A stretch of DNA of 33,932 nt from Actinomycetes bacterium (GTDB lineage Bacteria; Actinomycetota; Actinomycetes; Streptosporangiales; Streptosporangiaceae): assembly GCA_025964635.1 (NCBI GenBank), contig JAOPYP010000247.1, positions 1 through 33,932 on the forward strand, given 5' to 3'. The notes under the pieces were generated by a model. The model saw only the letters and a list, made by a program, of their open reading frames with translations, was not told where the DNA came from and made no database searches. Below, piece by piece: positions 6,596 through 16,920 of this stretch. Made by a program: the position numbers and the translations under genes. The first letter of the stretch is position 1. Every line of letters starts with the position of its first letter.

Positions 6596-6614
6596 GCTCA
6601 CATCGTGCTCACAT
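6596..6614 (+). promoter_or_regulatory. Direct repeat GCTCACAT x2 with 11-bp phasing upstream of response regulator 1
   Basis: GCTCACATCGT GCTCACATGTG at 6596-6603 and 6607-6614, the geometry expected for OmpR/PhoB-family binding. TAGCCT (6625-6630) lies 6 nt before the ATG at 6637, which suggests a leaderless or near-leaderless transcript. Confidence 0.45.
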
Positions 6615-6636: not shown

Positions 6637-7323
6637 ATGCGAGTTCTGGTCGTCGAGGATGAGGTGCGTACCGCGGCCTTGCTGAGGCGGGGGCTGTCCG
6701 AGGCCGGGTACAGCGTGGACGTCGCGGTGGATGGCCCGGATGCCGTGTGGCGGGCCAGCGAGTTCAGCTATGACGCCGTGGTGCTGGACGTCATGCTGCC
6801 CGGCTACGACGGCCTGGAAGTGTGCCGCAGGCTGCGCGGCCGCGGCCGCTGGGCCCCGGTGCTGATGCTGACCGCCCGGGACGACCTGGCCGCCCGGGTC
6901 CGCGGCCTGGATTCCGGAGCCGATGACTACCTGGCCAAGCCGTTCAGCTTCGATGAGCTCTTCGCCCGGCTCAGGGCCCTGATCCGGCGGGGCGCGCCCG
7001 AGCGGCCGACCCTGGTGCAATGCGGTGACCTGCGGCTGGATCCCGCTACCCGGCGGGTGTGGCGCGGCGACATAGAACTGGCGCTGTCTCCGAAGGAGTT
7101 CGCGCTGCTGGAGTTGTTCCTCCGGCATCCAGGCCACGTGCTGACCCGCACCCGGATCCTGGAGCACGTCTGGGACTTCTCCTACGACGGTGGCTCTAAC
7201 GTCGTCGACCAGTACGTCGGCTACCTGCGGCGCAAGATCGACCGGCCGTTCGGGGTCACTCAGCTGGAGACGGTCCGCGGAGTGGGCTACCGGCTGCGGG
7301 ACGCCCCGCCCGGGACGGGCTGA
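6637..7323 (+). CDS. OmpR/PhoB-family response regulator (pair 1)
   Basis: Full track ORF. Receiver domain (VVEDE, VLDVMLPGYDG, LMLTAR, KPF) plus winged-helix output (LSPKEFALLELFLRHPGHVLTR, VWDFSYDGGSNVVDQYVGYLRRKID, VRGVGYRL). Confidence 0.92.
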   Translation: MRVLVVEDEVRTAALLRRGLSEAGYSVDVAVDGPDAVWRASEFSYDAVVLDVMLPGYDGLEVCRRLRGRGRWAPVLMLTARDDLAARVRGLDSGADDYLAKPFSFDELFARLRALIRRGAPERPTLVQCGDLRLDPATRRVWRGDIELALSPKEFALLELFLRHPGHVLTRTRILEHVWDFSYDGGSNVVDQYVGYLRRKIDRPFGVTQLETVRGVGYRLRDAPPGTG

Positions 7324-7330
7324 GCCGGCC

Positions 7331-8752
7331 ATGTCGCTGCGGACGCGGCTCGCCCTGATCTTCGCGCTCGGCAGTGGCGCGCTGGTGACGGTGGCCGGGC
7401 TGGCCTTCGTGTGGCAGCTGCACACCTCGCTCAGCGCCGCGCTGGACAGCGAGCTGCGGGTGCGTGCGACCGCGCTGGCGGCCCAGCTGGCCACGGGGTC
7501 GCTGCCGACGTTCCCCCCGGCCAGCAGCAATCAGGCCGGCGGCCATGCCGGCCAGTCTCCCGCAGCGGAACAGATCAGCCAGGTTCTCAGGCCTGGCCGC
7601 GGCCCGCTGTACTCGTCGGGCCTGGAAGGCGCCGCGCCGCTGCTCTCCCCGGCCCAGCTCCGCCGCGCGGCCACGGGCCCGCTCACCGTCACCACCGTCA
7701 TCCACGGGGAGCGGCTGCGGCTGCTGGCCAGCGAGGTCCGCTTCCGCCGGCAACCGGCCATCACCGTGGTCGCGGTGCCGACCGACGTCGCTGACACCGC
7801 GCTGGCGCGGGCCCGCCTGGCCCTGGTGATCGCGGCCCCCCTCGCCGTGCTCACCGCCGGGCTGGGCGGCTGGCTGCTGACCGGTGCGGCCTTGCATCCG
7901 GTGGCCCGCATGCGGCGGCGGCTGGAGGAGATCACCGCGCGGGACACGGGCGCCCGGCTGCCGGTCCCGGGGACCGGCGACGAGATCGCCGCCCTGGCCG
8001 TCACCATGAACGGGCTGCTCGACCGGCTTCAGCAGGCCCTGGCCCGGCAGCGCGCGTTCACCGCCGATGCCGGTCACGAGCTGCGCACACCGCTGACCGC
8101 GCTCAAGGCCGAGCTGGAACTGGCGGCCCGGCCGGGCCGGTCACGCGATGCGCTGGCCGCCGCCGTGGGGGCGGCCGCCAGCGACACCGACCGGCTGATC
8201 CGGCTGGCCGAGGATCTCCTGCTGCTGGCGGGCACCGACGAAGGCACGGCTTCCCTGGTCCGGGAAAGGACCGACATCTCCAGCGAGCTGCACGCGGCCG
8301 CGCGCCGGTTCGCGACCGCGGCCGCCGGCCGGGAGGTGGCCATCTCCGTGCAGGCGAACGGGCCGCTGCCGGTCAGCGCCGACCCGGGCCGGATGCGGCA
8401 GGTGCTCGACAACCTCCTCGGCAACGCCCTCCGGCACGCCCCGCCCGGAAGCACGGTCGAGATGACCGGCCGTCCCGCCCCGGCCGTCAGGCCGGGCGGT
8501 GGGCAGCGGCGGGTGGTCGCGGTCGAGGTCCGCGATCACGGGCCGGGCTTCCCGCCCGACTTCCTCCCGCAGGCGTTCGGGCGGTTCCAGCGGGCCGACC
8601 GGGCCCGCAGCCGGGCCGATGGTGGCACGGGCCTGGGACTGGCCATCGTGGCGTCCATCGTCCGCGCGCACGGGGGGACGGCGATCGCGGGCAACGACCC
8701 AGGCGGAGGAGCCCGGATCCGGATCGAACTCCCCCTCGATTCAGGGCAGTGA
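7331..8752 (+). CDS. Sensor histidine kinase (pair 1)
   Basis: Track ORF 7190..8752 trimmed to the ATG at 7331, 8 nt after the RR stop. Two TM segments flank an extracytoplasmic domain of about 130 aa. HAMP region, H-box AGHELRTPL, N-box DNLLGNALRHAP, G1 DHGPGF and G2 GTGLGLAIV. Confidence 0.9.
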   Translation: MSLRTRLALIFALGSGALVTVAGLAFVWQLHTSLSAALDSELRVRATALAAQLATGSLPTFPPASSNQAGGHAGQSPAAEQISQVLRPGRGPLYSSGLEGAAPLLSPAQLRRAATGPLTVTTVIHGERLRLLASEVRFRRQPAITVVAVPTDVADTALARARLALVIAAPLAVLTAGLGGWLLTGAALHPVARMRRRLEEITARDTGARLPVPGTGDEIAALAVTMNGLLDRLQQALARQRAFTADAGHELRTPLTALKAELELAARPGRSRDALAAAVGAAASDTDRLIRLAEDLLLLAGTDEGTASLVRERTDISSELHAAARRFATAAAGREVAISVQANGPLPVSADPGRMRQVLDNLLGNALRHAPPGSTVEMTGRPAPAVRPGGGQRRVVAVEVRDHGPGFPPDFLPQAFGRFQRADRARSRADGGTGLGLAIVASIVRAHGGTAIAGNDPGGGARIRIELPLDSGQ

Positions 8753-8868
8753 CCAGGACAGAAGCGCCCTCATGTCAGTTCTCACATCGCTCTCAAACGG
8801 TCATTACATGGCCGGTGACGCACGCTCATCAGTGTCAGTAGGAATCACGCACTGAAAGGTGACACGTC

Positions 8869-9222
8869 ATGAGGATCACGCCAAAGATCGCCGCCTTCGC
8901 TGTCGCGGGCCTCGCCCTGGCCGCACCGGCGACCGCCATGGCCGCCAGTAACGGCGCGGCCCAGCACACCGGCGCCTCGCACTCGGTGGTGGCCAGCTCC
9001 GAGCCGGCCGGCCCGGATCACGACAGCATCCAGCAGGGCGACCAGACCAGCCCCGACACCGCGTCGGGGACGGTCAAGACGACGAGCAGCACGCCCACCC
9101 CCGAGCCGTCCTCCTCCGAAGGGGAGTCCAGCACGGGGAGCGAGTCGAGCGTCTCGGACGGCCCGGGCGGCCACGCCGACGCGTCGGGGAACGTGCAGTA
9201 CGAGTTCAACGGGGTCCAGTAA
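8869..9222 (+). CDS. Small secreted acidic Ser/Thr/Pro/Gly-rich protein, unknown function
   Basis: Full track ORF with a GAAAGGTG RBS. Sec signal MRITPKIAAFAVAGLALAAPATAMA with an AXA cleavage site. The mature part of about 90 aa is low-complexity, contains five His, and ends in GGHADASGNVQYEFNGVQ. A strong terminator follows. Confidence 0.65.
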   Translation: MRITPKIAAFAVAGLALAAPATAMAASNGAAQHTGASHSVVASSEPAGPDHDSIQQGDQTSPDTASGTVKTTSSTPTPEPSSSEGESSTGSESSVSDGPGGHADASGNVQYEFNGVQ

Positions 9223-9266
9223 CCCCGCCCCGGACTCCCGCCCGGCGCACGGCGACCGGGTAAGCC

Positions 9267-9307
9267 CAGGTGCGGGCGGCGAGCCTCAGGCTCGCCGCCC
9301 GCACCTG
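9267..9307. terminator. Bidirectional intrinsic terminator (perfect 19-bp stem)
   Basis: CAGGTGCGGGCGGCGAGCC (9267-9285), tca, GGCTCGCCGCCCGCACCTG (9289-9307). Located between the convergent genes ending at 9222 (+) and 9313 (-). Confidence 0.7.
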
Positions 9308-9312
9308 CGTGA

Positions 9313-11979
9313 TCAGAGGTCCCGCATGATGTCGGCGGCGGGCCGGCGTATCGCGCGGATGACGCTGACCCCGGTAGCCACGACGGCCCCGCAGGTCACG
9401 CCGCCCAGAGCGGCCAGATAGGCCCAGGGGACGAACAGGTGCGGTGGCGGCGGGTCGAACACCCCGGTCAGGATCTTCGTGATGATGAACGACAGTGCCC
9501 AGCCGGACAGCACACCCAGCAGGGCGCCGCCGATCGTCACGAAGACGGCCTCGCTCCACACGAACGAGGCGAGCTGGCGGGATCGTGCGCCCAGTGCGGC
9601 GGCGATCGCGAACGTGCGGCGCCGCTCGACCAGCCCGAGCGCCAGCACCAGGCCAGATGCCGCGGCCGCCAGGAGGAAGGCGAACGCCAGCTCCAGCCGG
9701 GTCAGGCCGGACAGGTCCAGCGCGGTCAGGCCGGACAGCGTGACCCTGAGCTGGGTGTTGATGTCCTGGACGACCGCCCCGGACGCCGGGCCCAGGATCC
9801 GCCGGACCTCCCGGGCCACCGCCGGGGGAGAGCCATTGGCCCGGACGAGCAGGTCCTGGTACGCCGGCGATCCGGTGGCCCGGGCCACATAAGAAGCGTT
9901 AGCGATGAAAAAGGAGTCCTTGGGTGCCGTGGGGAACTCCCGGACCACGCCCGCATAGTGGAAGGGAACGATGTGGTAGGTGTGATCCCGGGCGGACTGC
10001 ATCCGCAGCCGGAGCAGGTCACCCGGCCGGAGCTGGTAGTTGACCACGGTCTCCTGCGAGACCAGCACCGCGTCGGGATGCGCGGCCAGGGTGGCGAGCA
10101 CCCCGGCGGCGTTGCCGCCCTGGAAGAAGGCATCTGACATCGGCGTGGCCGTGCCGATGCGCGTGGGGTTGATCCCGTACAGGTCCTGCAGGTCGTTCCC
10201 GACGTACGCGAACCGGTGCATCATCGGCTGCACCGCGGCGACGCCGTTCAGCCGGCTGGTCGCGGCCAGCGCCCCCGGGGGCAGGCCGGTCGCGGCGGTG
10301 GTGGCGGCCGTCACATCCGCCCCGTTCGTGAGCTGGGCGTCGACCCGCGACTGCTGGGAGTAGGTCGTGTTGAAGATCGCCGTGGACACCGCGAACGAGG
10401 CCGTCAGCCCGATGATCATGAGACCGCGGGACAGCAGCCGCCGCTGCCGCGACATGGAGGCGGCCACCACCCCGGCCAGTTCACCCGCCAGCGGCCGGGT
10501 GGCCCGGGCCAGCAGGGGCCGCCCGCGGCTGAGGACCGCGGTGGAGATCCGCCAGGACAGCAGCGCCGCCCCGACCCAGAGCGCCAGCGGCGCCAGGAAC
10601 GTCGAGTAGTTCACCGAGATCGTCGCGACGCCTTCGGGGGCCAGCACGACCTGATACCCGCTCCGGACCGACTGCCAGAAAATGACCCCGGCCAGCGCCA
10701 GCAGCCAGACGTCCAGGTACAGCCGGGCCCACAGCGGGCGGCGGCCCCGCCCGACGACCCCGCGCGCGCCGCGTCCCGACAGGGAGCGGGCGTCCTTCCA
10801 CGCGGGGAGGCCGATGGTCAGCGCGGCCAGGATCAGCCCGGCGAGCGCCGCCACCGCGGCCCAGGCGACCGCCTGCCCCAGCGTCGAGCCGAATCGCGAG
10901 GCGCCGAACGTGAGCCGGCTGGCCAGTACGGCACCGGCCAGGCCGATGCCCGAACCGAGCACGCCGACCAGCAGGGCCTCGGCCCCGGCCAGCCCCACGA
11001 TGGTGCGTGGCGAGGCGCCCCGGATCCGCAGCAGCGCCTGCTCCCGGCGCCGCCGTTCCCCGCCCGCCGCGCCGATGACGGAGGTGAGCAGCGCGGCGAG
11101 GACCGCACCCGGCAGCCCGAGGAACAGGAACAGCAGTTCCGCGTACACCGCGTCGCCGCGGGCCGCGTCGAGCTGGGCGCTCAGGTTGTCACCGACGAGA
11201 CCGCCGCCGACCAGCTTCGCCTCGAGGTTCTTGGCCCGGGCCATGACATCCGCGAAGGCCGTCGCGGGATCGGGGGACAGGGCGGGCGACAGCTTGACGT
11301 GGTACTGGGTGGTCACCGCCGCGGGCTGGGTGCGCTGCAGCGGCGCGAACGCGGCCTGCCACTGCGCGGCCGGGAGCAGCACGACGTTGTCCGGGGGCGC
11401 CTGCGGCGCCGCCCCCGGAACCACGCCGACCGCCTGGAACATCGAGTCCGCGGCGGGCAGGTCCACGATGCCCTGGACCGGGACCCGCAGCGGCGGCAGC
11501 CCCTGCCGCCCGATGCTGATGACCGAGCCGATGGTCGCATGCAGGTTCGCGGCGGTCTGCTGGGCGAGCAGCACCCCGCTGCGCGCCCCGAGCAGGGGCC
11601 GGATCTCGCCCGGGAAGGCGCCCGCGTAGCCGGGGGGCAGGCCGAGCACCTTGCCGGGCCCGGTGGTCTGGACCGTCCCGGCGGATGAGGCGGTGATCCC
11701 GGTCGTCGGGGCGTAGCCGACCGGCACGCTCCTGACGACGCCCGGGGCGGACGCGATCGTCCGGCCGGCCGTGGCCGGATTCGTGCCGGGCGCGAGCTGA
11801 ACCTGCCAGTCCACGATCACGCCCGCGACGGCCTGCTTGGTCATGTGCGCCTTGCTCGAGGCGAAGAACGCGCCGAGTGAGCCGAGCAGGGCCACGGCGA
11901 TGGCGACCCCGATCACGGCGCCCGCCAAACGGGCCGGCCTGCGCTTGAGCAGGCCCCACAGCCAGGTCAGAGCGTACAT
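9313..11979 (-). CDS. ABC transporter permease with two fused FtsX/MacB-type modules (about 10 TM, two large extracytoplasmic domains)
   Basis: Full track ORF, 888 aa. N-terminal TM, then an extracytoplasmic domain of about 250 aa, three TM, further TM segments, a second extracytoplasmic domain of about 230 aa, and a C-terminal three-TM FtsX module. The start overlaps the stop of the upstream ATPase by 13 nt. Confidence 0.85.
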   Translation of the reverse strand: MYALTWLWGLLKRRPARLAGAVIGVAIAVALLGSLGAFFASSKAHMTKQAVAGVIVDWQVQLAPGTNPATAGRTIASAPGVVRSVPVGYAPTTGITASSAGTVQTTGPGKVLGLPPGYAGAFPGEIRPLLGARSGVLLAQQTAANLHATIGSVISIGRQGLPPLRVPVQGIVDLPAADSMFQAVGVVPGAAPQAPPDNVVLLPAAQWQAAFAPLQRTQPAAVTTQYHVKLSPALSPDPATAFADVMARAKNLEAKLVGGGLVGDNLSAQLDAARGDAVYAELLFLFLGLPGAVLAALLTSVIGAAGGERRRREQALLRIRGASPRTIVGLAGAEALLVGVLGSGIGLAGAVLASRLTFGASRFGSTLGQAVAWAAVAALAGLILAALTIGLPAWKDARSLSGRGARGVVGRGRRPLWARLYLDVWLLALAGVIFWQSVRSGYQVVLAPEGVATISVNYSTFLAPLALWVGAALLSWRISTAVLSRGRPLLARATRPLAGELAGVVAASMSRQRRLLSRGLMIIGLTASFAVSTAIFNTTYSQQSRVDAQLTNGADVTAATTAATGLPPGALAATSRLNGVAAVQPMMHRFAYVGNDLQDLYGINPTRIGTATPMSDAFFQGGNAAGVLATLAAHPDAVLVSQETVVNYQLRPGDLLRLRMQSARDHTYHIVPFHYAGVVREFPTAPKDSFFIANASYVARATGSPAYQDLLVRANGSPPAVAREVRRILGPASGAVVQDINTQLRVTLSGLTALDLSGLTRLELAFAFLLAAAASGLVLALGLVERRRTFAIAAALGARSRQLASFVWSEAVFVTIGGALLGVLSGWALSFIITKILTGVFDPPPPHLFVPWAYLAALGGVTCGAVVATGVSVIRAIRRPAADIMRDL

Positions 11980-12641
11980 GAGGTTCCCGTCTGGAGAATT
12001 CGCTCGGTCATGGTCCAGCGCAGCGGCAGCCGGTCGGCCATGGCCTGGTCGTGGGTGGCGACGACCAGCGCCGTGCCGGCCGCCTCGACGTGGCGGAACA
12101 GCACGTCCATCAGCCCCGCCGCGGCGGCGCGGTCCAGCTGCCCGGTCGGCTCGTCGGCCAGGATCAGCCGTGGTTCACCCATCAGCGCCCGGGCCATGCC
12201 GGCCCGCTGGGCCTGGCCGCCGGAGATCTCCTCGGGCAGCTTCGACGCCACCTCGGCCAGCCCGAGCTGCTCGATTAGGGCCTGGGCCGCCGCCGCGGCC
12301 GTGGCCTCCGCGGTGCCCGCGAGCAGCGCCGGCAGGGCCACGTTCTCGGCCACCGTGAGCGGGGGCAGCAGGCTGGGTCCCTGGAAGGCCAGGGCGACCG
12401 GGCCGGGCCGGAGATCCTCGGCCCGTCCGAGGGCGGGCCACTCGATGACCCCGGCCGACGGCTGGTCCAGCGCCGCGATTATGTGCAGCAGGGACGTCTT
12501 GCCGCTGCCGGACGGCCCGACCAGGGCGATGCGGTCGCCCGCGCAGATCTCGAACGTCGCGTCCGCGACCGCGACCACCGGGCGCTGGCCGTTGCCGAAC
12601 TCGCGCCGGAGCCCCTTGGCGCGCACCAGGACGTCATTCAT
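11967..12641 (-). CDS. ABC transporter ATP-binding protein (LolD/MacB-NBD type), copy B
   Basis: Full track ORF. Walker A GPSGSGKTS, Q-loop AFQGPSL, signature ISGGQAQR, Walker B LILADEPTGQLD, H-loop VVATHD. Overlaps the neighbouring genes on both sides. Confidence 0.9.
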   Translation of the reverse strand: MNDVLVRAKGLRREFGNGQRPVVAVADATFEICAGDRIALVGPSGSGKTSLLHIIAALDQPSAGVIEWPALGRAEDLRPGPVALAFQGPSLLPPLTVAENVALPALLAGTAEATAAAAAQALIEQLGLAEVASKLPEEISGGQAQRAGMARALMGEPRLILADEPTGQLDRAAAAGLMDVLFRHVEAAGTALVVATHDQAMADRLPLRWTMTERILQTGTSCTL

Positions 12642-13398
12642 CGGTGACCCTTCCGTCGACCATCCGCACGATCCGGTCGGCGGACGCGGCTACCCGCTCG
12701 CTGTGCGTCACGACCAGGACCGCTTTCCCGCGGTCCGCCCGGCCGCGCAGCAGCTCCAGTACCTGGGCCTCGGCCTGCCGGTCCACCTCACCGGTGGGCT
12801 CGTCGGCCAGCAGGACCGGCGGATCGTTAGCCATGGCCACGGCCAGGCCGGCCCGGGCGCTTTCGCCGCCGGACAGGGTGCTCGGCCGGGCCGAGGCGCG
12901 CTCTCCCAGGCCCACGTCGTCGAGCAGGGTCTGCCCGTCGGGACGGCTCCGCCCACCAGCCCCGGGGCCGCTCCAGGTCCCGGACTCTGGGTGGCCTCGC
13001 GGCTCCCCCACCGGTTCCTTCACCACCGGTTCCTTCACCACCAGGGCCTGCGCGGCCCGGATGTTCTGCACCACGCTGAGGTGCTCCAGGAGGTTGCCCG
13101 ACTGCAGCAGCATGCCGATCCACCGGGCCCGCAGCCTGGCCCGGGTGGCTTCGTCCCGCCGGCTGATCCGCTGCCCGGCGATCGTCACGTGCCCGCCGTC
13201 CGGCTCGTCCAGCCCGGCCAGGCAGGCCAGCAGGGTCGACTTCCCGCTCCCGGACGGGCCGACCACGGCGACCATCTCGCCCGCGTGCACGCTGACGGAC
13301 ACCCCGCGCAGCGCGAAGGTCTCGTCGTCACCGATGTGGTAGAAGCGGTACAGTTCGCGCCCGTCGATCAGCGGCCGGGCCTGCGCGGTTACTTCCAC
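12634..13398 (-). CDS. ABC transporter ATP-binding protein (LolD/MacB-NBD type), copy A, with a low-complexity insertion
   Basis: Track ORF 12634..13704 trimmed to the GTG at 13396-13398 (VEVTAQARPLIDGRELYRFY...), which overlaps the lipoprotein stop by 10 nt. Walker [11 protein letters not shown]-loop LLQSGNL, signature LSGGESAR, Walker B VLLADEPTGEVD, H-loop VVTHS. Confidence 0.85.
   Translation of the reverse strand: MEVTAQARPLIDGRELYRFYHIGDDETFALRGVSVSVHAGEMVAVVGPSGSGKSTLLACLAGLDEPDGGHVTIAGQRISRRDEATRARLRARWIGMLLQSGNLLEHLSVVQNIRAAQALVVKEPVVKEPVGEPRGHPESGTWSGPGAGGRSRPDGQTLLDDVGLGERASARPSTLSGGESARAGLAVAMANDPPVLLADEPTGEVDRQAEAQVLELLRGRADRGKAVLVVTHSERVAASADRIVRMVDGRVTDE
13009..13042 (-). repeat. 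In-frame 15-bp tandem duplication (about 2.3 units) encoding VVKEP-VVKEP-V inside ATPase copy A
   Basis: The plus strand reads caccggttccttcac caccggttccttcac cacc. Confidence 0.9.
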
Positions 13399-14066
13399 CG
13401 GAAACTCTCCGAGACGATGCGCCACGGATCGACGTTGTCCGACCCGACCGCGGACGACAGGTCGATGACGGCCCCCCGTCCGTGGCGGTAGAGCTCGAAC
13501 CGCTCGATCACCAGCCGGTACTGCCGTCCGGTGACCCCGTTGGGCGGGCTGTTGACCTGGTAGATGGTCTCGACCGCCGGGCCGCCGGCCAGCTTCACGG
13601 CCCGCACCGACTGCAGCCGGAAGGCCAGGGACTTGGCCTTCAGCGCCGGGACGGCGGTGGCCTGGACGGAGTGGACCGTGGGCGGGGCGGCCAGGGGCAT
13701 CCACGCGACGCTGATGGAGTTCAGGTTGCTGGTGAACGTCGAGCTGGCCGGGGTGGTCTTCCGCGACCAGCCCTCGGGCACCTTGATCAGGAGATGCCCG
13801 GGTGGCGACTGGTAGGTCACGTAGACGGTGGTGTCCGGGATGTCCCCGGGAGGGTTGCTCTCGGCGGCGACCGGGGCCTGGGAACCGCCCGGGCCCGGGC
13901 TGGAGGTGCCCGGGGTGGAGGGGGCCGGGGCGGAGGCCTTGGTGGTCCCGGCCACGGGGGTGGCGGACCCGGAGTTCCCGCAGGCGGCCAGCGCGGAGAG
14001 GAGACCCGCTGCGGTCAGGGCGATGCCCAGCCGCCGGGCCATGGGTGGGTTGCTGCTATCAGGCAT
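13389..14066 (-). CDS. Lipoprotein of unknown function (operon partner of the ABC system)
   Basis: Full track ORF; an alternative ATG lies at 14042. Lipobox LLSALAAC followed by a Pro/Ser/Thr-rich linker and a globular domain of about 140 aa. Its stop overlaps the ATPase start. Confidence 0.75.
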   Translation of the reverse strand: MPDSSNPPMARRLGIALTAAGLLSALAACGNSGSATPVAGTTKASAPAPSTPGTSSPGPGGSQAPVAAESNPPGDIPDTTVYVTYQSPPGHLLIKVPEGWSRKTTPASSTFTSNLNSISVAWMPLAAPPTVHSVQATAVPALKAKSLAFRLQSVRAVKLAGGPAVETIYQVNSPPNGVTGRQYRLVIERFELYRHGRGAVIDLSSAVGSDNVDPWRIVSESFRWK

Positions 14067-14067
14067 G

Positions 14068-14085
14068 CCCCGGTTTTTACCGGGG
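14068..14085 (-). other. Short hairpin CCCCGG-TTTTTA-CCGGGG between HK2 and the lipoprotein gene
   Basis: Read directly: 6-bp GC stem with a 6-nt A/T loop, 2 nt upstream of the first possible lipoprotein ATG. Possible attenuator or processing site. Confidence 0.3.
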
Positions 14086-14122
14086 GGCAGATGAAGCGAC
14101 GATGAAGCCGCCGCGGCCCGGA

Positions 14123-15523
14123 TCAGCCGGAGGAGGCTGAGGCGGAACTCAGGCCGGCGCTGGGAACCGGCAGACGATCGAGGGCCAGGATCATGGTGAC
14201 CCGGGCCCCGCCCGGCACGTTCTCCGCGGTGGCCCTCCCGCCGTGCGCCCGCGCTACCGCCTGGACGATGGCCAGTCCCAGCCCGGCCCCAGAGTGCGAC
14301 GTGACGTCAGTCTCACCCCGGACGAACGCCTCGAACGCCCGGGGCAGCAGGGCATCGCCGAAACCCGGTCCGGTGTTCTCCATCCGGACCGTCGCCACCT
14401 CACCGGACACGGTCGCGCCGACCCGGATCAGCCCGCCGGTCTCCGGGCCGTAGCGGATCGCGTTGTCCAGCAGGTTGTCGAGCGCCTGGCGGACCCGCAT
14501 GGGATCGACCGGGATCTCCATCGCCGGGGCGGCGCACTCGATCCGCACCCCCCGGTCCTGGGCCCGTGCCCGGTGGCCCGCGCAGGCGCGGCTGAGCAGA
14601 TCCTGCAGGGAGGTGCTCATCCGGTGGATGCGGAAGCCGCCCGCCCGGGCCCGGGACAGCACCAGCAGGTCCTCGGCCAGCCGGGCCAGCCGGTCGGTCT
14701 CCTCTGACGCGCTCCGCAAGGCCGCTTCGAGCTCCCGGGCCTCCCGGGGACGCGACAAGGTCAGGTCCAGTTCGGCCTTCAGGATGCTGAGCGGCGTCCG
14801 CAGTTCGTGGCTCGCGTCATCGAGCACGCGCTGTTCCCGGTCTCTCGCGTCCTGCAGCCGGTCGAGGAGCGAGTTCAGGGTCCGGCCCAGCCGGGCGATC
14901 TCGTCTTTCGCGGCCGGTACCGGGAGTCGCCGGCTGGGCTGGGACACCGAGATCGCGGCGGCCTCCCGGCGCATGCGCTCGACGGGCCGCAAGGCGGCCC
15001 CGGCCAGCACCCAGGCGGCCAGGCAGGCCAGGGCCAGCGCAGCCGGGCCGGCCGTCTCCAGCAGCAGCCGGAGGCTGGCCAGCGTCTGGCTGACCTCGGT
15101 CATGGCCGACCCGACCACCACGAAGAGCGGCTGCCCCTCGGTGGTCGGCAGGACGAACGCCCGGAGGACGGGGCGGCCCGGCGCCGCGGGGATGGCCATG
15201 AACTGCGGTTCGCGGATGGCCCGCAGCGCCGCAGCGGACAGGGTCGGTCCCGCGAGCCCGCGGGATATCTGCACCTGGCCGGCGGGCGTGAGGATCTGGG
15301 TCAGGCCGCCAGCCCAGCTGTCGGGTGTATCCAGGCCGGCCGGCCCGGCCCGGCCGATCCCCGAGGCGATCACCTCCGCCCGGGTCCGCAGCGCGGAATC
15401 GGCGGTCCGGACCAGCTCCGCCTGCAGCCGCGCGTACACGAAGAAGCTGAGCGCCGCGAGGATCAGGGCGATGCTCGCCGCCGAGGCCAGCGTGACCCGG
15501 ACGCGGAGCGGGACGCGCCTCAT
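14123..15523 (-). CDS. Sensor histidine kinase (pair 2)
   Basis: Full track ORF. Its ATG overlaps the RR2 stop (ATGA). Same architecture as HK1: two TM segments, extracytoplasmic domain, HAMP, H-box ASHELRTPL, N-box DNLLDNAIRYGP, G2 GAGLGLAIV. Confidence 0.9.
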   Translation of the reverse strand: MRRVPLRVRVTLASAASIALILAALSFFVYARLQAELVRTADSALRTRAEVIASGIGRAGPAGLDTPDSWAGGLTQILTPAGQVQISRGLAGPTLSAAALRAIREPQFMAIPAAPGRPVLRAFVLPTTEGQPLFVVVGSAMTEVSQTLASLRLLLETAGPAALALACLAAWVLAGAALRPVERMRREAAAISVSQPSRRLPVPAAKDEIARLGRTLNSLLDRLQDARDREQRVLDDASHELRTPLSILKAELDLTLSRPREARELEAALRSASEETDRLARLAEDLLVLSRARAGGFRIHRMSTSLQDLLSRACAGHRARAQDRGVRIECAAPAMEIPVDPMRVRQALDNLLDNAIRYGPETGGLIRVGATVSGEVATVRMENTGPGFGDALLPRAFEAFVRGETDVTSHSGAGLGLAIVQAVARAHGGRATAENVPGGARVTMILALDRLPVPSAGLSSASASSG

Positions 15524-16188
15524 GCGCGGAGCCGGTAGCCCGCGCCGCGGATGGTCTCGATCGACTGCGTGCCGAAGGGCCGGTCGATCTTGTCCCGCAG
15601 GATCCGCACGTACACGTCCACGACGTTCGAGTCACCCGCGCCCGCGAAGTCCCAGACGTGCTCCAGGAATCTCGCCCGGGAGATCACCTGGGCCGGGTGC
15701 CGCATGAAGTACTCGAGGATGGCGAATTCCTTGGCCGCCAGGCTGATCGCCGTGGTTCCCCGGCAGACCGTGCGCGCCGCGGGGTCGAGCCGGAGGTCGC
15801 CCACCGCCAGGATGGCCGGCCGCTCGCCCGGGTTGCGCCGGACCAGGGCCCTGACCCGGGCCCGGAGTTCCTCGATGCTGAACGGCTTCGTGAGGTAGTC
15901 GTCGGCGCCGACGTCCAGGCCGCGCACCCGGTCCGGGACTGCCTCGCGGGCGGTCAGCATGAGGATCGGCATCCAGCGCGCCCGTTCCCGGAGCTGCCGG
16001 CAGACGTCGAAGCCGTCGATATCCGGCAGCCCGATGTCCAGGATGACCGCGTCGAAGTCGCACTCGCTGGCCATCCACACGGCCTCGTTGCCGGTGGCCT
16101 GGACGTCGACCGCGTACCCGTCCTCACGGAACGCCCGCTGCAGCAGGGTCGCCATCTTGGCTGTGTCCTCGACGACTAGGAGGCGCAC
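15520..16188 (-). CDS. OmpR/PhoB-family response regulator (pair 2)
   Basis: Track ORF 15520..16233 trimmed to the GTG at 16186-16188, which is preceded by GGGGAGG. Roughly half of its positions are identical to RR1 by eye ([37 protein letters not shown]). Confidence 0.9.
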
Positions 16189-16404
16189 AGCCGTGCCTCC
16201 CCTGCAGTGCGTCCGCGCACGGTACTCCCTCACTCTGGCCGGCAGGCGCTGAGGTCACCGAGCGTATACACGACGGCCCGTGCGCACGGCCAGATGCGCG
16301 GAGCGCCCTCCCACGTGACCCTAGGCCGGGAACATGAGAGATTCGTGAACGGCCTTCACGGCGCCCGCCTGACCCGGCCCGGATCCTCTCTAGGATCACC
16401 AGGT

Positions 16405-16920
16405 ATGCCAGAACCGACCGCCGGGGTCGTCGAGATCTTCACGGATGGTGCGTGCTCCCCCAATCCGGGCCCGGGCGGATGGGGAGCCATCCTGCGGTAT
16501 GGCCGCCATAGCAAGGAGATCTACGGCGGGGAGCCGGCGACCACGAACAACCGGATGGAAATCATGGCGGCCATCCAGGGGCTGGAGAGCCTGACCCGGC
16601 CGTCGGCCGTGCACGTGCACACCGACAGCGAGTACCTGCGCAAGGGCATCACGCAGTGGCTGCCCACCTGGAAGCGCAATGGCTGGCAGACCACGGAGAA
16701 GAAGCCAGTCAAGAACGCCGACCTGTGGATGCGGCTGGACTCAGCGACCCGGGACCACGCCGTTCAGTGGTTCTGGGTCAAGGGTCACGCGGGACATCCG
16801 GAAAACGAGCGCGCCGACGAGCTGGCCGGCCGTGGGTCCGCGGAAGCCGCCGCTCACGACCCGGCCGCGTGCCGCCCGGACGTGTCCGCCGCCGGCTCGG
16901 CCCGGCGCGCCCGCAGGTAA
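16405..16920 (+). CDS. rnhA: Ribonuclease HI
   Basis: Track ORF 16207..16920 trimmed to the ATG at 16405. Motifs [39 protein letters not shown] and [14 protein letters not shown]. The C-terminal tail overlaps the convergent dedA. Confidence 0.9.

Follow-up and report, generated by a model that had tools for sequence, protein, structure and literature searches.

The 33,932-nucleotide (nt) contig JAOPYP010000247.1 from an Actinomycetes bacterium (the window, which here means this whole stretch of DNA; G+C ~72%) carries six minus-strand genes between positions 16188 and 9313 that encode an OmpR-type two-component system (TCS), a lipoprotein, two different ATP-binding cassette (ABC) ATPases and a fused permease. 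The conserved unit among them is a cassette of four genes: lipoprotein, ATPase A, ATPase B and fused permease. We found it complete at 41 loci in seven phyla (Actinomycetota, Pseudomonadota, Deinococcota, Cyanobacteriota, Spirochaetota, Thermodesulfobacteriota and Bacillota), and a single-ATPase version was seen at none of the 41. The conservation of both ATPase sequences strongly supports a motor that would be an A-B heterodimer. We see about an even chance that the locus encodes an inducible, asymmetric type VII (MacB/FtsX-superfamily) machine that resembles YbbAP and serves envelope extraction or defence. Our best guess is that it protects the envelope against stresses aimed at the membrane or a lipid carrier.

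Copies of the cassette abound in soil metagenomes, span seven phyla and are present on conjugative plasmids, so that its function probably matters for survival in soil and the rhizosphere, and it may also influence how well cells tolerate envelope-active compounds. A pseudo-symmetric permease paired with two different ATPases, both fully catalytic, would offer a natural test of how labour is divided between ATP sites and between permease halves. Intact copies in cultured bacteria should allow genetics, which makes the question testable.

A four-gene cassette with two ATPases

The six genes of the window are as follows.

15520-16188, minus strand: RR2, OmpR-family response regulator, 222 amino acids (aa); GTG start, GGGAGG Shine-Dalgarno sequence; Pfam Response_reg and Trans_reg_C
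14123-15523, minus strand: HK2, sensor histidine kinase, 466 aa; Pfam HAMP, HisKA and HATPase_c
13389-14066, minus strand: lipoprotein, 225 aa; lipobox LAAC-G; no Pfam or NCBIfam family
12634-13398, minus strand: ATPase A, 254 aa, MacB/LolD/YbbA-type; GTG start; Pfam ABC_tran
11967-12641, minus strand: ATPase B, 224 aa, MacB/LolD/YbbA-type; Pfam ABC_tran
9313-11979, minus strand: fused permease, 888 aa; Pfam FtsX twice and MacB_PCD twice

Four of the junctions overlap, by 4 nt at RR2/HK2 (ATGA), 10 nt at lipoprotein/A, 8 nt at A/B and 13 nt at B/permease, and the single gap, of 56 nt (14067-14122), separates HK2 from the lipoprotein gene. When the coordinates of the open reading frames (ORFs) were re-derived, the six genes, the four overlaps and the lone gap all lay where an earlier, sequence-only reading had placed them. 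That reading had described a tightly coupled operon of six genes. Its tight overlaps stand, but its conserved unit does not: the cassette comprises four genes, the position of the TCS varies, and the cassette probably has a promoter of its own.

The permease was used to scan one genome per prokaryotic species, which yielded 27 loci, and the order lipoprotein-A-B-permease was seen in every one of them that had enough upstream DNA. A lipoprotein profile (alignment A1) was run on 401 sampled genomes of the window's phylum and detected the family in 21/401 genomes and 19/249 genera, mostly other classes with small genomes. This profile gave 11 extra loci, and the lipoprotein, A and B were again present in 11/11. 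The locus counts include L031, which comes from an unpublished genome (G088); the conclusions are independent of it. A tblastn search of a plasmid collection returned 34 records in cultured, named strains, and ten of these loci were examined in detail. Four of the ten were from Rhizobium tropici CIAT 899 (pRtrCIAT899a), Agrobacterium fabrum 2788 (pAt), Bradyrhizobium japonicum (pS11L-1) and Paraburkholderia fungorum. The others were from Rhodococcus opacus B4 (pROB01), R. jostii RHA1 (pRHL1), Mycolicibacterium rufum, Streptomyces sp. N50, Chroococcidiopsis thermalis PCC 7203 and Deinococcus aetherius. The full cassette was present at all ten. The permease is intact in the A. fabrum, M. rufum, Chroococcidiopsis, Deinococcus and Paraburkholderia copies. 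In R. tropici CIAT 899 (L040 9799-12361) and R. opacus B4 (L042 10926-13570), it is read in two frames and annotated as two coding sequences, and these copies may be broken. A frame break in the permease was also seen at loci L018 and L019, which come from metagenome-assembled genomes (MAGs).

ATPases A and B form two old, separate clades. Compared with the window's proteins, orthologues of A were 44-93% identical and those of B 43-95%, versus 30-39% for cross-matches between A and B (tblastn). In a quick maximum-likelihood search with 65 sequences, the A and B clades were split on a long branch with 100% support, and the two halves of the tree showed matching sub-clades. Copies from Spirochaetota, Desulfobacteraceae and Bacillota nested within the actinobacterial diversity in both halves, indicating that the A-B pair moved jointly between phyla. 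Co-occurrence profiling of the arrangement with two nucleotide-binding domains, which the sequence-only reading had proposed as a check, found A and B together in 41/41 complete loci, with parallel sub-trees. We also looked for relatives in which one of the two was dispensable or a pseudogene, and found both ATPases intact at all 41.

Walker A, the Q-loop Gln, the Walker B Asp-Glu, the D-loop, the H-loop His and the signature were kept in A and B of every orthologue examined; for A, these motifs were read in 21 orthologues plus the plasmid copies. The motif alignment, which covered all 41 loci, bore out the claim that there are two distinct ATPase genes with intact Walker A/B, Q-loop, signature and H-loop. 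A degenerate ATP site in one of the ATPases was rejected, all catalytic motifs being intact in both across orthologues. The signature is LSGGE in A (LSGGESAR in the window) and [IL]SGGQ in B (ISGGQAQR in the window). LSGGE is the normal form of the signature in LolD and FtsE. ATPase B has in addition a family-specific WPALG...LRP stretch. Among solved structures, the nearest relatives of A were the MacB nucleotide-binding domain and then YbbA, and that of B was YbbA (9ge6_B), with LolD among the best for both. The best named NCBIfam relatives of A and B were MacB, LolD, YbbA, DevA and FtsE, which places both in the MacB/LolD/FtsE clade. They belong neither to the YbbA equivalog NF007879 (157.5 bits for A and 148.3 for B versus a cut-off of 336) nor to the LolD equivalog (163 and 155 bits versus 307.75). 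One element of ATPase A differs among lineages.

12931-13042, minus strand: low-complexity insert in ATPase A, ~28 aa long and within its helical subdomain; in the alignment, confined to the window and its two closest relatives, L001 and L002

It contains a 15-bp tandem duplication (13003-13032) whose copies are 87% alike, and L001 lacks the extra VVKEP unit; from the alignment, this insert is lineage-specific and not a family trait. In ATPase B, a near-conserved C-terminal Cys (CTL, CTF, CSS) falls in the overlap with the permease start at 11967-11979 (ATGT, read as TGT). It reflects overlapping coding and is not a functional motif.

The characterised type VII ABC systems MacB, LolCDE, FtsEX, BceAB, HrtBA and YbbAP each use two copies of one ATPase, and a 2018 review of the MacB family catalogued no arrangement with two different ATPases. 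In our full-text literature searches, we came across neither a type VII system that has two ATPases nor one partnered by a lipoprotein of the PsbP type.

An AlphaFold model of the permease, built from a 20-sequence alignment (A2), had a mean predicted local distance difference test score (pLDDT) of 81 and showed ten transmembrane (TM) helices in a 4+2+4 arrangement with two periplasmic domains. The predicted segments, in residues, are as follows.

Half 1: TM1 15-52; periplasmic domain 1 58-264; TM2-4 265-399; coupling helix 307-319
Linker: TM5-6 422-485
Half 2: TM7 513-552; periplasmic domain 2 556-748; TM8-10 756-877

The model and the Pfam matches agree with the earlier description of two fused FtsX/MacB modules with about ten TM helices and two outside domains. 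Each unit has an FtsX bundle with MacB_PCD between its helices 1 and 2, as in type VII systems. In a Foldseek search against the PDB, the best match was YbbP (9ge6_A; E 2e-20, full length, 16% identity). LolE, over half the length, and BceB were far behind, and MacB and HrtB also matched. The coupling regions of the two halves have different sets of invariant residues (E313, Q314, L317, R318, R320, G321 and A322 versus E785, R786, R788, F790, A791, A795, G797 and A798), as would be expected if each permease half has its own ATPase.

The gene directly upstream of ATPase A always encodes the lipoprotein, in keeping with its proposed role as a dedicated partner. A lipobox and a disordered Pro/Ser/Gly-rich linker are followed by an invariant GDIPD and a domain of ~150 residues (~78-225). 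The invariant motifs in alignment A1 are GDIPD, PxGW and GxDNVDxW, and most of the invariant residues are acidic. No Pfam or NCBIfam family matched at E 0.01, the LpqN, DcrB and PsbP families included. The domain was modelled with pLDDT >90 as a Mog1p/PsbP-like alpha/beta sandwich (Foldseek E 8e-7). VIA-align Z scores were 15.4 for CyanoP (2xb3), 13.6 for 7pi0_P, 10.8 for DcrB (6e8a) and 10.4 for LpqN (6e5d); the range of 10-13 held other PsbP proteins, a Jonesia protein, TplEi, DcrB, Apa, Mtc28, LpqN and the SciW/EagT6 chaperones. In the ESM Atlas, the lipoprotein lay beside clusters named LpqN (0.94-0.95), a likeness in language-model features only. Clustered at 90% identity, the family falls into ~2,650 groups; at 50%, it has 1,099 representatives. 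Among the matches listed, those named by a source are called 'hypothetical', and one plasmid copy is annotated 'PsbP-related protein'. A review points to evidence that LpqN interacts with the lipid transporters MmpL3 and MmpL11 and binds a mimic of a lipid, trehalose-monomycolate.

Promoter-like elements and two-component systems

Direct-repeat boxes with an 11-bp period precede the cassette and both regulator genes of the window.

14091-14106, minus strand: box TTCATCGTCGCTTCAT, two TTCAT with an 11-bp period (TTCAT-N6-TTCAT), in the HK2-lipoprotein gap
14068-14085, minus strand: hairpin CCCCGG-TAAAAA-CCGGGG in the same gap, overlapping a -10-like hexamer
16334-16349, minus strand: box TTCAC-N6-CTCAT before RR2; TAGGGT (16318-16323) comes after a 10-nt spacer
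6597-6612: box CTCAC-N6-CTCAC before RR1, the regulator of a second TCS; likely leaderless start

The pattern [TC]TCA[TCG]-N6-[TC]TCA[TCG] has three matches in the 33.9-kb window, all at promoters (RR1, RR2 and lipoprotein). On the 3' side of the gap box come 11 nt, TAAAAA (14074-14079), 7 nt and the ATG (14064-14066). A box followed by N10-11 and TAnnnn was present upstream of the lipoprotein gene in 18/30 loci (12/19 loci with the window included, and 6/11 further genomes), versus 0.009 expected per locus. The gap box and TAAAAA are thus probably the cassette's own promoter, and the box at 16334-16349 is probably an autoregulated promoter of RR2-HK2. The ATG lies 7-8 nt past the -10-like hexamer in the window, L001, L002, L005, L019 and L021; the 7-nt spacing after TAAAAA suggests a leaderless or near-leaderless cassette message. 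A sigma-70 consensus scan of 8800-16700 found no promoters, which is uninformative for an actinomycete with 72% G+C.

The hairpin that had been noticed in the gap is present and is the sole element retained in the centroid fold. Its fold is not notable: the region has a z score of -1.2, no better than shuffled sequences, and L002, an 80%-identical relative, does not retain the hairpin. On these two results we reject it as an attenuator or terminator and prefer the promoter reading. The conserved feature of the gap, as judged from its sequence, is a promoter-like element and not the hairpin.

Comparable 11-bp-phased repeats occur at the same places in other lineages: CTAAGT-N5-CTAAGT before the regulator and lipoprotein genes of Bradyrhizobium (3 matches versus 0 expected), CTAAG/CTAAT repeats in Agrobacterium and Rhizobium, and TATAC-N6-TTTACC repeats in Deinococcus. 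BqsR, an OmpR-family regulator, has been shown experimentally to use an 11-bp-phased TTAAG-N6-TTAAG that overlaps the polymerase site (PMC12714742, PMC4358008). By analogy, the repeat layout is that of a classic OmpR-family activator overlapping the -35 region. The conserved boxes at cassette promoters lend support to the earlier expectation that an OmpR-type regulator would control the genes. The window genes probably form two regulator-controlled units, RR2-HK2 and the cassette, and read-through from the former into the latter is possible.

A regulator-kinase pair lies within 10 kb in 21/21 loci with enough flank. Its placement varies by lineage: same-strand upstream as in the window, divergent (the commonest), or downstream of the cassette. 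The closest solved relatives of RR2 are generic OmpR-family proteins (DrrD, Mycobacterium tuberculosis PhoP and BasR), and it scores under the cut-off of every NCBIfam equivalog. This ranking of solved relatives in the PDB does not support RR2 as an orthologue of BqsR/DbfR. HK2, as read from its sequence, has two membrane segments with an outside domain of ~120 aa between them, which upholds the statement that it has an extracytoplasmic domain, unlike BceS. Its best NCBIfam match was the heavy-metal sensor kinase subfamily, at 232 bits versus a cut-off of 292.55. The Agrobacterium orthologue matched Pfam 2CSK_N (E 1e-4) just below the gathering threshold (22.8 versus 23.2 bits). The second, paralogous TCS of the window (6637-8752) is convergent to the permease gene. 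Its regulator, RR1, is 60% identical to RR2, and the recognition helices of the two differ at four positions. A small secreted protein without a Pfam family (8869-9222) is encoded after the RR1 TCS, and at L026 an RR1-like pair directly follows the permease on the same strand.

Functional clues and competing explanations

ORF clustering of the 27 metagenome-assembled loci and Pfam searches of 77 flanking ORFs found no further gene conserved in a majority of loci. Four families recurred near the module.

DedA/VTT: window (two genes), a Desulfobacteraceae MAG (four), Deinococcus, and Bradyrhizobium (5 nt after the permease)
PAP2: R. opacus (sited between the regulator and lipoprotein genes), M. 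rufum (downstream of the permease gene, with a box before it), Deinococcus (two) and the Desulfobacteraceae MAG
UppP: window
PepSY: Spirochaetota, Desulfobacteraceae, Deinococcus and Paraburkholderia, with the cassette's TCS

Genes of the DedA/VTT, PAP2 or UppP families lie next to the module in the window, L013, L042, L043, L045 and L049. Only L001, which is 97% identical, shares the window's own dedA, uppP and blaI neighbours. The window's genome (G000) has 7 DedA and 5-6 PAP2 genes in 6.7 Mb. By a rough estimate, chance would bring each family within 4 kb at ~0.3 of ~35 independent loci, versus four lineages seen for each. PAP2 enzymes (BcrC-type) and UppP dephosphorylate undecaprenyl pyrophosphate, and DedA proteins return the carrier. 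In Bacillus, BcrC/UppP-type enzymes and DedA act alongside BceAB against bacitracin. On D. aetherius pDAETH-3 (L045, 2864-17754), TATAC-N6-TTTACC had 11 matches versus 0.11 expected and preceded PepSY, a PAP2-regulator-kinase group, the cassette, DedA, an NRAMP-type transporter and a second PAP2 (together with a winged-helix gene). This shared box indicates that the cassette belongs to one regulon with the PepSY, PAP2, TCS, DedA and NRAMP-type genes. PepSY-kinase-regulator modules are published sensors of envelope and cationic stress, and they respond to polymyxin, membrane damage and Fe(II) (PMC12714742, PMC4358008). Taken together, the neighbours point to an inducible role in envelope or lipid-carrier stress, and the lipid-carrier cycle is the most specific functional lead.

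The closest described system is YbbAP-TesA (PDB 9GE6-9GE8), a 2:1:1 complex in which two YbbA sit on the two coupling helices of a 4+2+4 permease (PMC12646458). It shares with the cassette a single-chain 4+2+4 permease, two MacB-type periplasmic domains, separate MacB/LolD-type ATPases and a dedicated extracytoplasmic partner. However, YbbAP has two copies of one ATPase, whereas the cassette has two old paralogues in 41/41 complete loci; its partner is the SGNH hydrolase TesA rather than a PsbP-fold lipoprotein without a hydrolase family match; and the permeases are only 16% identical. The cassette also has a linked TCS and an apparent activator-type promoter, and YbbAP has not been described with either. 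BceAB-BceRS resembles the cassette in being a type VII system with a fused 10-helix permease, a genetically coupled OmpR-type TCS and lipid-carrier-cycle genes nearby (PAP2-type, UppP-type and DedA). It differs in that BceB bears a single large domain outside the membrane (between helices 7 and 8) where the cassette permease has two (after helices 1 and 7), BceA is a homodimeric single ATPase, BceS lacks a sensor domain and depends on the transporter while HK2 has its ~120-aa outside domain, and BceAB has no lipoprotein partner.

With LolCDE-LolA, the cassette shares an asymmetric TM part, a MacB-type ATPase and possibly a lipidic hand-over to an acceptor. The asymmetry of LolCDE is limited to its two permeases, LolC and LolE, encoded by two genes, and LolD is a homodimer, whereas the cassette has one fused permease; the acceptor has a LolA-type fold rather than a PsbP-type fold; and LolCDE is essential housekeeping machinery of double-membrane bacteria, while the cassette is accessory, regulated and mobile. 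LpqN, DcrB and PsbP have the C-terminal fold of the cassette lipoprotein, and LpqN and DcrB are also lipoproteins, but LpqN partners RND-type MmpL proteins and the cassette lipoprotein an ABC system. Finally, Vibrio cholerae DbfQRS and Pseudomonas aeruginosa BqsPQRS recall the four lineages in which a PepSY gene lies with the TCS, and the rhizobial CTAAG(T) repeats have the same phase as the BqsR site. The window itself has no PepSY gene, its box is of the TTCAT type, and RR2 is not specifically near the DbfQRS/BqsPQRS regulators. Text searches of the papers on these two systems found no type VII ABC system (PMC12714742, PMC4358008).

As a YbbAP-like machine, the locus would work as follows. 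HK2 would sense an extracytoplasmic envelope signal, and phosphorylated RR2 would bind the TTCAT-type repeats overlapping the -35 regions of its own promoter and that of the cassette. The overlapping stop and start codons would keep the four cassette genes in a fixed ratio. These regulatory steps are suggested by conserved sequence, and the composition by gene content: one 10-helix permease with two different periplasmic domains, one A docked on one coupling helix, one B docked on the other, and, at the outer face, one PsbP/Mog1-fold lipoprotein anchored in the membrane. If MacB, LolCDE, HrtBA, BceAB and YbbAP-TesA are a guide, the A-B dimer would bind and hydrolyse ATP to move the periplasmic domains, and these motions would pull an amphipathic or lipid-bound molecule from the outer leaflet and pass it to the lipoprotein or act on it together with the lipoprotein. 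In a Bce-like version, which we regard as possible and rather doubtful, the machine would free undecaprenyl (pyro)phosphate from an antibiotic. A fuller version is unlikely in our view: the cassette would be the first recognised type VII machine whose motor is an obligate heterodimer, and a non-Firmicute counterpart of target protection by BceAB. As a mobile device under sensor control, it would join PAP2/UppP phosphatases and DedA flippases in sustaining the undecaprenyl-phosphate cycle under attack, with the lipoprotein as acceptor or clamp for the extracted complex.

Several points weigh against the envelope-defence machine. Only a minority of loci have a DedA, PAP2, UppP or PepSY gene nearby, and no TTCAT box precedes dedA or uppP in the window. 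Some loci lie amid metal-handling genes, which would fit a different stimulus, and either RR1 or RR2 may be the regulator that acts on the cassette box. In the accessible supplements of an acid-stress study of R. tropici CIAT 899, the cassette locus tags were not among the genes. We infer the A-B heterodimer, the 1:1:1:1 stoichiometry, the lipoprotein contact, the inducer and the cargo. The response-regulator mutant of that acid-stress study affects a different, chromosomal gene.

The same parts could instead make a cargo-free transducer of signal or force like FtsEX-EnvC/PcsB. Its periplasmic domains, moved by ATP, would switch the lipoprotein to activate or inhibit an envelope enzyme or to co-sense with the kinase, as BceAB does for BceS. 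Type VII includes pure mechanotransducers (PMC5985334, PMC12646458), the PsbP/Mog1 fold is mostly that of a protein-binding adaptor (PsbP, Mog1, Tsi3, EagT6/SciW), the lipoprotein has no catalytic family signature, and the genetic linkage to a TCS is tight and invariable. We nevertheless consider it improbable: the clustered loci and flanking ORFs held no conserved target enzyme, HK2 has its own sensor domain and would not need a transporter as sensor, and by sequence features the lipoprotein is nearest to the LpqN type, which is linked to lipid transport. Another alternative is a constitutive-type envelope biogenesis exporter, which would take an endogenous lipid, glycolipid or lipoprotein out of the membrane and hand it to the PsbP-fold lipoprotein in parallel to LolCDE-LolA or LpqN-MmpL. 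The LpqN-like fold and features, the MmpL3/MmpL11 partnership and trehalose-monomycolate mimic reported for LpqN, and the extraction of lipidic cargo by LolCDE and YbbAP all speak for such an exporter. It is made very unlikely by the patchy distribution (21/401 genomes and 19/249 genera of the phylum), by plasmid carriage and transfer between phyla, by the constant TCS linkage with an activator-type promoter, and by the presence of the cassette in both single- and double-membrane bacteria. Being patchy, plasmid-borne and TCS-linked, the cassette fits better with an accessory, inducible system than with core biogenesis.

A metal- or cation-stress module, in which the kinase would sense a metal cation (for example Cu, Fe(II) or Zn) and the machine would clear away cationic compounds or envelope components that metal has damaged or bound, would account for the heavy-metal subfamilies (CzcR/CusR and CusS) as best NCBIfam matches of RR2 and HK2, for the mainly acidic invariant residues of the lipoprotein and for the company of some loci. 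Neighbours of the loci in Deinococcus, Paraburkholderia and Mycolicibacterium include CDF, ArsR, NRAMP, P-type ATPase and ZIP genes, the Deinococcus NRAMP-type gene shares the box, the rhizobial loci encode a DUF1344 protein with a weak CusF-like match, and BqsRS, which senses Fe(II), has a TTAAG-N6-TTAAG site resembling the rhizobial CTAAG(T) repeats. Yet both NCBIfam scores are under the curated cut-offs, RR2 is not specifically near any metal regulator among solved structures, the sequence of the HK2 outside domain has no His, Cys or ExxE motif, and metal genes are missing from most loci, so that we give this module only a slim chance. Slimmer still is the chance that one ATPase drives the machine while the other is regulatory or structural, or that alternative homodimers form by condition. 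In its favour, one of the two sites is non-hydrolytic in many heterodimeric ABC exporters, and the sequence around the Q-loop of ATPase A is not the usual one; in the window lineage, this ATPase also carries the ~28-aa insert in its helical subdomain. Against this, the Walker B Glu, H-loop His, Q-loop Gln and LSGG[QE] are kept in A and B of all orthologues examined, and the 8-nt overlap of the two genes favours equal synthesis.

Flanking genes and boundaries

The 3' end of the cassette in the window is marked by a strong hairpin.

9267-9307, minus strand: terminator-like hairpin with a perfect 19-bp stem, beginning 6 nt past the permease stop codon

The 106-nt stretch that contains it has a minimum free energy of -80.7 kcal/mol (z -7.9), which 0/200 shuffles equalled. 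It is probably a two-way terminator shared with the convergent gene for the small secreted protein. Two strong hairpins are stacked in 9216-9307, between these convergent genes. At the other end, an RNase H gene (16402-16920, plus strand) sits between RR2 and the uppP-dedA pair farther upstream, and it converges with dedA2 (minus strand) such that their 3' ends overlap by ~66 nt (16854-16920).

Elsewhere, three genes come after that of the permease in R. tropici and Agrobacterium (L040/L041, 12533-14348). They encode the DUF1344 protein, whose CusF-like match is weak (E 3e-4), then a hypothetical protein and lastly a membrane protein with DUF347, a domain that was also found twice among the flanking ORFs of other loci. 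On contig C498 of the window's genome (3356-4576), PAP2 and VTT/DedA matches lie in one 571-aa frame, which may encode a DedA-PAP2 fusion.

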